A stretch of DNA of 64,000 nucleotides, from NCBI GenBank assembly GCA_965116495.1, contig OZ220696.1, positions 1,075,493 to 1,139,492 of the forward strand, given 5' to 3'. The translations under genes were made by a program, and so were the position numbers. This stretch comes from Gammaproteobacteria bacterium (GTDB lineage: Bacteria > Pseudomonadota > Gammaproteobacteria > Eutrophobiales > Eutrophobiaceae). Below are positions 43,382-43,534 of the stretch, piece by piece (positions within the stretch are counted from its first letter, which is position 1; each line of letters starts with the position of its first letter). The notes under the pieces are model-generated. The model worked only from the letters and a program-made list of their open reading frames with translations. It did no database searches and had not been told where the DNA came from.

Positions 43382-43534
43382 ATCCGCAGATGACGCAGAT
43401 TACCGCAGATAAAAATATAAAAGATCAGGAGACTTACAAAATTCTTGGGGCGGCAATGGCTGTACATAGAGAACTGGGACATGGTTTTCTTGAGACTTGT
43501 TTTTAATCTGCGTTAATCTGCGTCATCTGCGGAT
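43382..43534. repeat. CGCAGAT-iteron inverted-repeat element, copy 7, carrying a 28-codon GxxExxY-family gene fragment (43420-43506) in its spacer
   Basis: The arms are perfect 29-bp inverted repeats. The spacer translates to [28 protein letters not shown] and ends exactly at the right arm. Confidence 0.8.

Follow-up and report, generated by a model that had tools for sequence, protein, structure and literature searches.

An apparent internally deleted GxxExxY cassette between phased heptamer arms in a gammaproteobacterial genome

A 153-base element at positions 43382–43534 lies between oppC and fabI in a 64,000-nt stretch of contig OZ220696.1 (GCA_965116495.1) from a Gammaproteobacteria bacterium; this whole stretch is hereafter called the window, and coordinates without a locus name are window positions. 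The element, the seventh of eight inverted-arm elements built from the heptamer CGCAGAT (copy 7), has an internal deletion and appears to be the non-functional remains of a small selfish cassette, a recent arrival in the oppC–fabI spacer. The intact cassette of about 450–500 bp carries a single gene for a Cas4/RecB-like PD-(D/E)XK protein of the GxxExxY family (PF13366) inside inverted arms. Cassettes of this architecture occur in many phyla, leave deletion derivatives, are inherited vertically and decay, differ in presence or absence between relatives, and cluster with one another. The account as a whole, which joins copy 7, the cassette of arms and nuclease, and the mechanism set out below, is held with moderate confidence.

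Copy 7 and its gene remnant

The original prediction placed at these coordinates a CGCAGAT element that retains 25 codons of a GxxExxY gene, and the position, the arms and the remnant were all recovered. Copy 7 is bounded by two inverted 29-nt arms with three CGCAGAT units each, spaced 9 and then 10 nt. The left arm reads ATCCGCAGAT-GA-CGCAGAT-TAC-CGCAGAT, the right arm is its inverse, and the spacer between them measures 85–95 nt; a repeat search on copy 7 returned arms of 34 nt that are 94% complementary and 85 nt apart. The features of the site are as follows.

43365..43374, plus strand: degenerate solo unit ATCAACAGAA, which shares one base with oppC, the last of its stop codon
43382..43410, plus strand: left arm of copy 7, with units at 43385-91, 43394-400 and 43404-10, the outermost being ATCCGCAGAT
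43390..43506, plus strand: open frame running through the left arm into the remnant (MTQITADKN..., from the open reading frame translation)
43420..43494, plus strand: remnant of the GxxExxY (PF13366) 5′ end, 25 codons, from profile and nucleotide matches
43493..43516, plus strand: deletion junction at about 43493-43495, then the last four codons and the arm-encoded tail in a shifted frame
43506..43534, minus strand: right arm of copy 7, with units at 43506-12, 43516-22 and 43525-31, ending ...ATCTGCGGAT
43540..43549, plus strand: solo unit ATCTGCAGAT, 5 nt past the right arm

The predicted resemblance of the fragment to the N-terminus of GxxExxY proteins proved significant, with PF13366 matching the remnant at E 4.4e-5 and 24.3 bits (gathering score 22) over profile positions 2–26 of 117. 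The TIGR04256 GxxExxY model matched at E 7.2e-6 and 26.4 bits and fell short of its whole-protein cut-off of 35, which is to be expected of a fragment. A local hidden Markov model (HMM) built from four full-length cassette genes recognised the remnant at E 3e-10. A word-index search of proteins, for which the query was the 46-aa read-through of the remnant, gave no match. At the nucleotide level, blastn aligned copy 7 with the 5′ part (left arm, leader and initial codons) of the full-length cassette at the metagenomic locus L142, at 78% identity over 119 nt (E 3.7e-21); in the intact cassette of L142 the left arm is likewise in frame with the gene.

The 3′ side of the remnant indicates how the gene was lost. 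After the glutamate codon GAG at 43492–43494, copy 7 continues AGA CTT GTT TTT AAT CTG CGT TAA in another frame, encoding RLVFNLR*, which is the canonical C-terminus/arm junction of the family, ...KRLVFNLR(ESA); 16 bases of this region, TGTTTTTAATCTGCGT, are identical to the gene/arm 3′ junction of the cassette at L203. Both gene ends are thus kept in copy 7 while about 270 bp of the middle is missing, which makes copy 7 an internal deletion with a frameshift and not a 3′ truncation. The fragment had been expected to end precisely at the right arm, which it does not, the last four gene codons following in the shifted frame. Of the catalytic residues only the first acid (the E of GxxExxY) remains, D67, E77 and K79 falling in the deleted part; copy 7 lacks the complete domain of about 117 positions with E...D...ExK, and its coding fragment is a pseudogene fragment and no member protein.

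Intact cassettes outside the window

A scan of one genome per species with the pattern CGCAGATNNCGCAGATNNNCGCAGAT showed that at least 120 genome tiles carry CGCAGAT arms. These tiles span Verrucomicrobiota, Planctomycetota, Chloroflexota, Acidobacteriota, Bacteroidota, Nitrospirota, Cyanobacteria, Alpha-, Beta- and Gammaproteobacteria and others, with Draconibacterium, Geothrix, Oligosphaera and Polaromonas among the isolates represented. Full-length PF13366 genes (E 1e-38 to 1e-41) stand between CGCAGAT or closely related arms at L071 from Candidatus Thiosymbion oneisti (arms at 3278-3303 and 3718-3752, with a gene N-terminus close to the window fragment), at L082 from Planctomycetota, where the intact cassette is followed by a tandem row of mini-elements, and at L049 from Pontiella. 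The search for intact genes with CGCAGAT arms was successful outside the window, as at L071 and L082. At L063 (4273-4440), an internal deletion between the arms has left 13 N-terminal and 40 C-terminal residues, and this deletion is independent of that in copy 7.

The reverse approach started from 80 metagenomic relatives of the L071 protein, 78 of which had enough flanking sequence. Inverted arms of 2–3 tandem units were found no more than 220 nt from the gene in 53 of these 78, which bears out the proposed tie between the GxxExxY family and a specific class of terminal repeats. The ancestral unit of inverted repeat, GxxExxY gene and inverted repeat that had been postulated exists at L071, L082 and L203 and in most of the 80 metagenomic relatives. 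At its 3′ end the gene runs directly into the right arm, which encodes the protein tail and usually the stop codon: a C-terminal LRESA-type tail corresponds to the translated right arm in 81 of 116 close database relatives, the stop codon of arm-tailed proteins usually lies within an arm linker, and protein heads such as PQITQI... are translated left arms. In L203 (2948-3425, and across L201-L210) an intact cassette stands between sdhA and sdhB, co-oriented within the sdhCDAB operon, and this arrangement recurs on 16 contigs from several samples.

Several loci are more elaborate. L142 carries a nested mini-element between the gene and the outer right arm (1860-1985), and other tandem-unit palindromes of CAGGAT and CACAGAG type occur in or beside CGCAGAT arms at L107 (1590-1900) and L108 (5640-5930). 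At L134 (550-1105) and L141 (1007-1446) the arms around the GxxExxY gene face outward (ATCTG.G ... gene ... C.CAGAT), reflecting either a gene between two adjacent elements or an inside-out arrangement. Plasmids were considered as vectors and rejected, relatives being present on 7 of 72,556 plasmid records; the copy on a Treponema plasmid has an ACGGATT-type repeat.

The GxxExxY protein

The cassette protein is 120–130 aa long and matches PF13366 only. Its AlphaFold2 model (predicted local distance difference test, pLDDT, 92) shows the secondary-structure order alpha-alpha-beta-beta-beta-alpha-beta-beta, with Cas4, Dna2 and RecB-type proteins as the closest folds. An alignment of 40 sequences shows no variation at E27 (the E of GxxExxY), D67 or K79 and next to none at E77, and the cassette protein is probably an active nuclease. 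The same alignment has one invariant cysteine (C70); with a single conserved cysteine, the protein has no Cas4-type Fe-S cluster. A sequence search of the PDB gave just a non-significant match of T7 endonuclease I near the PD...ExK motif (E 0.47), the defence models of PADLOC gave no match, and PHROGs gave one weak match of unknown function. The family comprises 27,989 cluster representatives at 50% identity (E<=1e-3). In the searchable full texts, GxxExxY, PF13366, PDDEXK_3 and TIGR04256 receive incidental mentions only, none of them on repeats, and no earlier description of a GxxExxY cassette with these arms was found in the searchable literature.

Conservation and phasing of the arm units

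CGCAGAT is the commonest heptamer and fills about 70–80% of unit positions, most of the rest being CACAGAT. The first linker is nearly always 2 nt and the second mostly 3 nt, giving the 9 + 10 bp spacing, which is about one helical turn. Across the elements compared, the units are better conserved than either the linkers or the protein: those of L071 and L082 are identical at 57% protein identity. Selection acts on the heptamer in helical phase and not on base-pairing, and this conservation points to a putative sequence-specific binding factor rather than a stem. The unit core follows the protein clade (CGCAGAT/CACAGAT, CGCGAAT, ACGAAT/ACGGATT or CACGAAT/CACAAAT), with all units switching together.

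Together with its usual left flank, the terminal unit reads TTATCC(G/A)CA, as at window positions 4441–4453 and at L139 1411–1425; the flank preceding TCC(G/A)CA has the consensus T-T-(A/G), which yields a box-like 9-mer. The consensus of the DnaA box is TTATCCACA. The A variant of the 9-mer is identical to it and the G variant has one mismatch, G being found in 73 of 94 terminal units.

Copies in the window

CGCAGAT is matched 43 times in the window against 9.6 expected (standard deviation 2.8), a 4.5-fold excess that 0 of 100 shuffles reached, and nearly all 43 matches fall in the eight inverted-arm elements. These elements are about 80–180 bp long, and their arms are conserved between copies while their spacers are mutually unrelated. 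The seven copies besides copy 7 are as follows, without an assigned strand.

326..475: copy 1, 33-nt arms and an unrelated 84-nt spacer
4444..4597: copy 2, three units per arm and a 95-nt spacer
12952..13031: copy 3, short, with a 22-nt spacer and degenerate middle units
18548..18697: copy 4, arms partly degenerate
23558..23735: copy 5, arms strongly degenerate and interrupted
33270..33427: copy 6, orthologous to L015 4626-4786
45692..45841: copy 8, perfect 31-nt arms

Among the 58 listed arm pairs, inter-arm spacers vary continuously from 6 to 432 nt, and HMM scans of all listed spacers gave matches only in copy 7, L063 and the full genes. The motif KR[ML]V, sought in the NLR frame ahead of the arm over 136 orientations, was not enriched, with 1 match against 1 and 3 in the control frames.

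A second inverted-arm family in the window (2185-2307, 28879-29063 and 41308-41541) has arms made of GAATTAC/GAATTAG arrays with a 7-nt period, and its ACGAATT core resembles the CACGAATT units that flank a distant GxxExxY clade (L157, L160 and L181). A perfect 34-nt inverted repeat at 26155-26421 (26155-26188 / 26388-26421), unrelated to the CGCAGAT family, encloses a second inverted repeat of 52 nt (26211-26262 / 26315-26366).

Gain, loss and decay among relatives

Orthologous loci of close relatives were reached via OppC homologues. Copy 7 is absent from L211, whose OppC is 98% identical, and from five further relatives, L212-L215 among them; all six of these relatives retain a solo unit ATC(C/T)(G/A)CAGAT by GTACAAWT at the empty site, with two units in L211 and L214, and the degenerate solo unit ATCAACAGAA of the window is orthologous to ATCCACAGAT of L211, L212 and L214. 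At this site the window has about 143 bases more than L211, with ATCCGCAGAT as their left and ATCTGCAGAT as their right boundary. The solo unit ATCTGCAGAT and the left terminal unit of copy 7 form a direct repeat around the inserted DNA. Copy 7 is read by parsimony as a gain in the window lineage beside a pre-existing unit.

Other copies show comparable turnover or decay. Copy 8 is present in the window and L211 only, being absent from L212-L215, and an element 82% identical to it, spacer included, occupies a different locus of L015. Copy 6 and its ortholog in L015 are 96% identical over element and flanks, the window arms carrying point changes relative to the intact arms of L015. At oppA–oppB, an entire mini-element distinguishes strains whose OppC is identical, and arm units there encode the C-terminus of OppA (PSADD* in L212/L213 at about 3060-3090, LSADDAD* in L217 at about 1500-1540); in L211 (2800-2880) four copies of the 15-nt tandem repeat GATTTATCCGCAGAT add (DLSAD)x4 to OppA. 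At the same site the window has the GAATTAC/G element of 41308-41541, which starts at the oppA stop codon and whose left and right arms count about 22 and 4 units, where L211, L214 and L215 have a CGCAGAT/CACAGAT element. In unfilled alleles the insertion point still carries a solo unit.

Direct repeats of the unit flank the DNA that was gained or lost. No classical target duplication longer than 2 nt was detected when 96 distinct elements were checked for exact flanking direct repeats, which measured 2 nt in 18 elements, 3 nt in 5 and 4 nt in 2, with no repeat of 5 nt or more. The arms of neighbouring elements are about 8-fold enriched 20–50 nt beyond element ends.

Further palindromes share these regions. 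A family of the form GGGGTCAGAGTAAAAATAC ... GTATTTTTACTCTGACCCC (window 10228-10360; L213 4885-5000; L215 about 6640-6720; L217-L224 about 3450-3560) occupies the oppC–fabI spacer in several relatives, and its copy is half-deleted in L218 and L223, whose OppC is identical to that of full-copy strains. The window also carries an open reading frame of about 230 aa on the minus strand at 30832-31533, where L015 (2836-3005) has a CGCAGAT mini-element between the same convergent genes; this difference is a replacement and not a simple insertion.

Proposed mechanism and alternatives

The phased units would be the cis-acting ends of the cassette, and a factor carried along with the element would recognise their sequence; the only candidate reader encoded in the element is the nuclease, probably acting as an oligomer. 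Movement may start with a nuclease-made break at or beside a unit and may be completed by host repair, with the short unit repeats serving as homology and with templated copying from another element. Such a break followed by unit-homology repair would account for truncated copies, for insertion beside solo units, for arrays that are tandem or nested, for differences in unit number and for sites at which one element has replaced another. Copies without a gene, including the other seven in the window, would be non-autonomous and dependent on an intact copy elsewhere. The most far-reaching form of this proposal, offered tentatively as possible rather than probable, is that GxxExxY proteins are the mobilising enzymes of unrecognised, cross-phylum, transposase-less cassettes, an oligomer of this minimal Cas4-like nuclease reading the three phased heptamers of each arm and breaking DNA at a unit, and host repair, with the 7–10-bp units as homology, copying in the element or, in trans, a gene-less derivative.

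The strongest alternative, though rather unlikely, holds that the arms are independent short palindromic repeats, similar to repetitive extragenic palindromic (REP) sequences or miniature inverted-repeat transposable elements (MITEs), that are spread by an unlinked enzyme or by host processes, with GxxExxY genes as their passengers, small nuclease genes that such palindromes capture or into which they home. Copy 7 would then be an old decayed passenger, and the gene-less copies would never have held a gene. In its favour, gene-less arm pairs far outnumber gene-carrying ones, the spacers of mini-elements are mutually unrelated and without gene remnants, other tandem-unit palindromes are nested in CGCAGAT elements (L107 and L108), a different arm family occupies the same oppA–oppB site in the window, and the nuclease fold is unlike that of any known transposase. 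However, throughout the clade the gene 3′ end meets the right arm at one fixed position and in one reading frame, arms accompany about 70% of clade genes, the core switches in concert with the protein clade in all six units, and no gene other than GxxExxY was found between CGCAGAT arms in the 58 listed pairs.

A number of observations weigh against the mobilising cassette itself. Only 3 of the 58 listed arm pairs enclose a full-length gene and 2 a gene fragment, leaving a gene-less majority, and the gene-less spacers are unrelated to the GxxExxY gene. Neither the tiles from relatives nor, by regex scan, the 64-kb window yielded an intact gene, and the spacers of the other seven window copies contain no detectable gene remnant. 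The original suggestion that the miniature copies are deletion derivatives is borne out for copy 7, which keeps both gene ends, and not for the other seven; their descent from a gene-carrying cassette is plausible, and they might then be the 'emptied shells' of that suggestion. The closest folds act on DNA ends or single strands and not on specific sequences, a minimal PD-(D/E)XK domain of about 120 aa is small for reading a 7-bp sequence, and binding and cutting of the units by the nuclease is a candidate activity. Unit/protein co-variation could be simple co-inheritance. Site histories are also complex, with solo units and tandem 15-nt duplications, and the direction of events rests on parsimony.

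Arms acting at the RNA level are an improbable alternative, in which arms transcribed with the host operon would pair into a long stem around the cassette reading frame and serve as an RNase III processing or insulating stem of the kind that bounds 23S rRNA intervening sequences, or as a stabiliser or attenuator, with the heptamers recognised by an RNA-binding factor. Cassettes do lie in operons in sense orientation (sdhA-[cassette]-sdhB), elements lie a few bases from stop and start codons, and copy 7 folded as single-stranded DNA gives a very stable hairpin (-37.6 kcal/mol, z = -8.2). Against this, mismatches between the arms show no wobble excess in the gene sense (50 G.T-type versus 45 A.C-type), and it is the heptamer sequence that is conserved and not its pairing. 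The linkers keep no complementarity either: the two linkers agree between the arms in only 49% and 24% of elements and are mismatched in 51% and 76%, the values between elements being 20% and 4%. Nothing is unusual about orientation with respect to the genes on either side (46:15 upstream, 35:21 downstream): these ratios, taken without a control, are close to the usual co-orientation of adjacent bacterial genes and give no evidence that the cassette depends on read-through. No Rfam family matched: at the gathering threshold the window yielded three tRNAs only, and copy 7 just generic hairpin matches far below threshold. An RNA role would also leave presence/absence polymorphism and dispersal unexplained.

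That the units are binding sites of a conserved host protein such as DnaA, with the elements kept for regulation or chromosome organisation, is very improbable. In its favour, distant phyla share one heptamer, every relative retains solo units at orthologous positions, and the terminal TTATCC(G/A)CA resembles the DnaA box. Against it, G stands where the box needs A in most terminal units (the 73 of 94 above), the cores that accompany other protein clades are quite unlike this one, strains whose neighbouring proteins are identical differ in the copies they carry, and arms decay by point mutation in orthologous copies.

Comparison with known systems

The system of arms and nuclease most resembles REPINs with their RAYT enzymes and MITEs with an autonomous parent, and it falls outside both because its enzyme is neither an HUH nor a DDE transposase and no target duplication is seen. 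As in the REPIN–RAYT system, inverted short repeats form gene-less intergenic hairpin elements and the enzyme gene is flanked by the same repeats, with vertical inheritance, no obvious target duplication and clustering of elements. The enzyme here, however, is a PD-(D/E)XK Cas4-like nuclease instead of an HUH Y1 (IS200/IS605-like) transposase, the GxxExxY gene is multi-copy and highly diversified, as the count of cluster representatives given above indicates, and each arm consists of three phased heptamers whereas a REPIN is built on one REP palindrome.

MITEs such as Correia/NEMIS and Nezha likewise have terminal inverted repeats, measure less than about 600 bp, include short copies without coding capacity and a longer gene-carrying version with the same ends, and arise as internal-deletion derivatives. 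In contrast to MITEs, the elements described here show no target-site duplication of fixed length and none above 2 nt, internal sequences are unrelated between copies, and insertion occurs beside pre-existing units. Their gene-carrying partner has the same ends, and its product is a Cas4-like nuclease that belongs to no known transposase family.

Three other systems share parts of this picture. Intervening sequences of 23S rRNA that carry an open reading frame (PF05635, the four-helix-bundle 'IVS protein') are similar in outline, being small multi-copy reading frames with inverted repeats or a long stem in transcribed DNA, whereas the cassettes lie between protein-coding genes (oppC and fabI for copy 7) instead of in rRNA helices, encode another protein family and give no evidence of RNA pairing. 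Homing endonuclease genes are also small selfish nuclease genes, multi-copy and patchy across phyla, and their break with templated repair parallels the one proposed here, but they have no iterated inverted arms and no gene-less hairpin derivatives, and cleavage specificity of the cassette protein is putative. With Cas4 the cassette protein shares the RecB-like nuclease core; unlike Cas4, it comprises only this core in about 120 aa, lacks the four-cysteine Fe-S cluster and had no CRISPR context at the loci examined (the neighbours of P0054 are sdh genes), where no systematic CRISPR survey was made.

The STRR/TAACTGA heptamers of cyanobacteria and Beggiatoaceae are intergenic tandem repeats with a 7-nt core, present in distant phyla and sometimes overlapping the ends of reading frames (PMC4679880). 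TAACTGA repeats form 169 direct sets and one inverted set, upstream of genes (PMC4679880); these are direct repeats without a bracketed gene, whereas the arms here are inverted around a spacer or a gene.

Implications for the GxxExxY family

PF13366/GxxExxY is a very large family with no assigned function and almost no literature. Its genes are carried as cargo in a defined cassette whose ends are phased and sequence-specific, and this gives the family a concrete and testable role. The ends of the cassette out-conserve its protein across phyla, and gene-less derivatives litter intergenic DNA, even providing stop codons and C-terminal tails to host proteins such as OppA. For annotation, this means that arm-encoded tails and heads are at present annotated as protein sequence and that mini-elements carry no annotation. 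The system is in addition a candidate for a new way in which small DNA elements move without a transposase. Repeat-bounded selfish elements with non-autonomous derivatives are a known kind, and if the nuclease is the mobilising enzyme, the cassettes would form a new class of element. Should GxxExxY proteins indeed mobilise these cassettes, this would provide a function for about 28,000 sequence clusters and an origin for the widespread tandem-heptamer palindromes.

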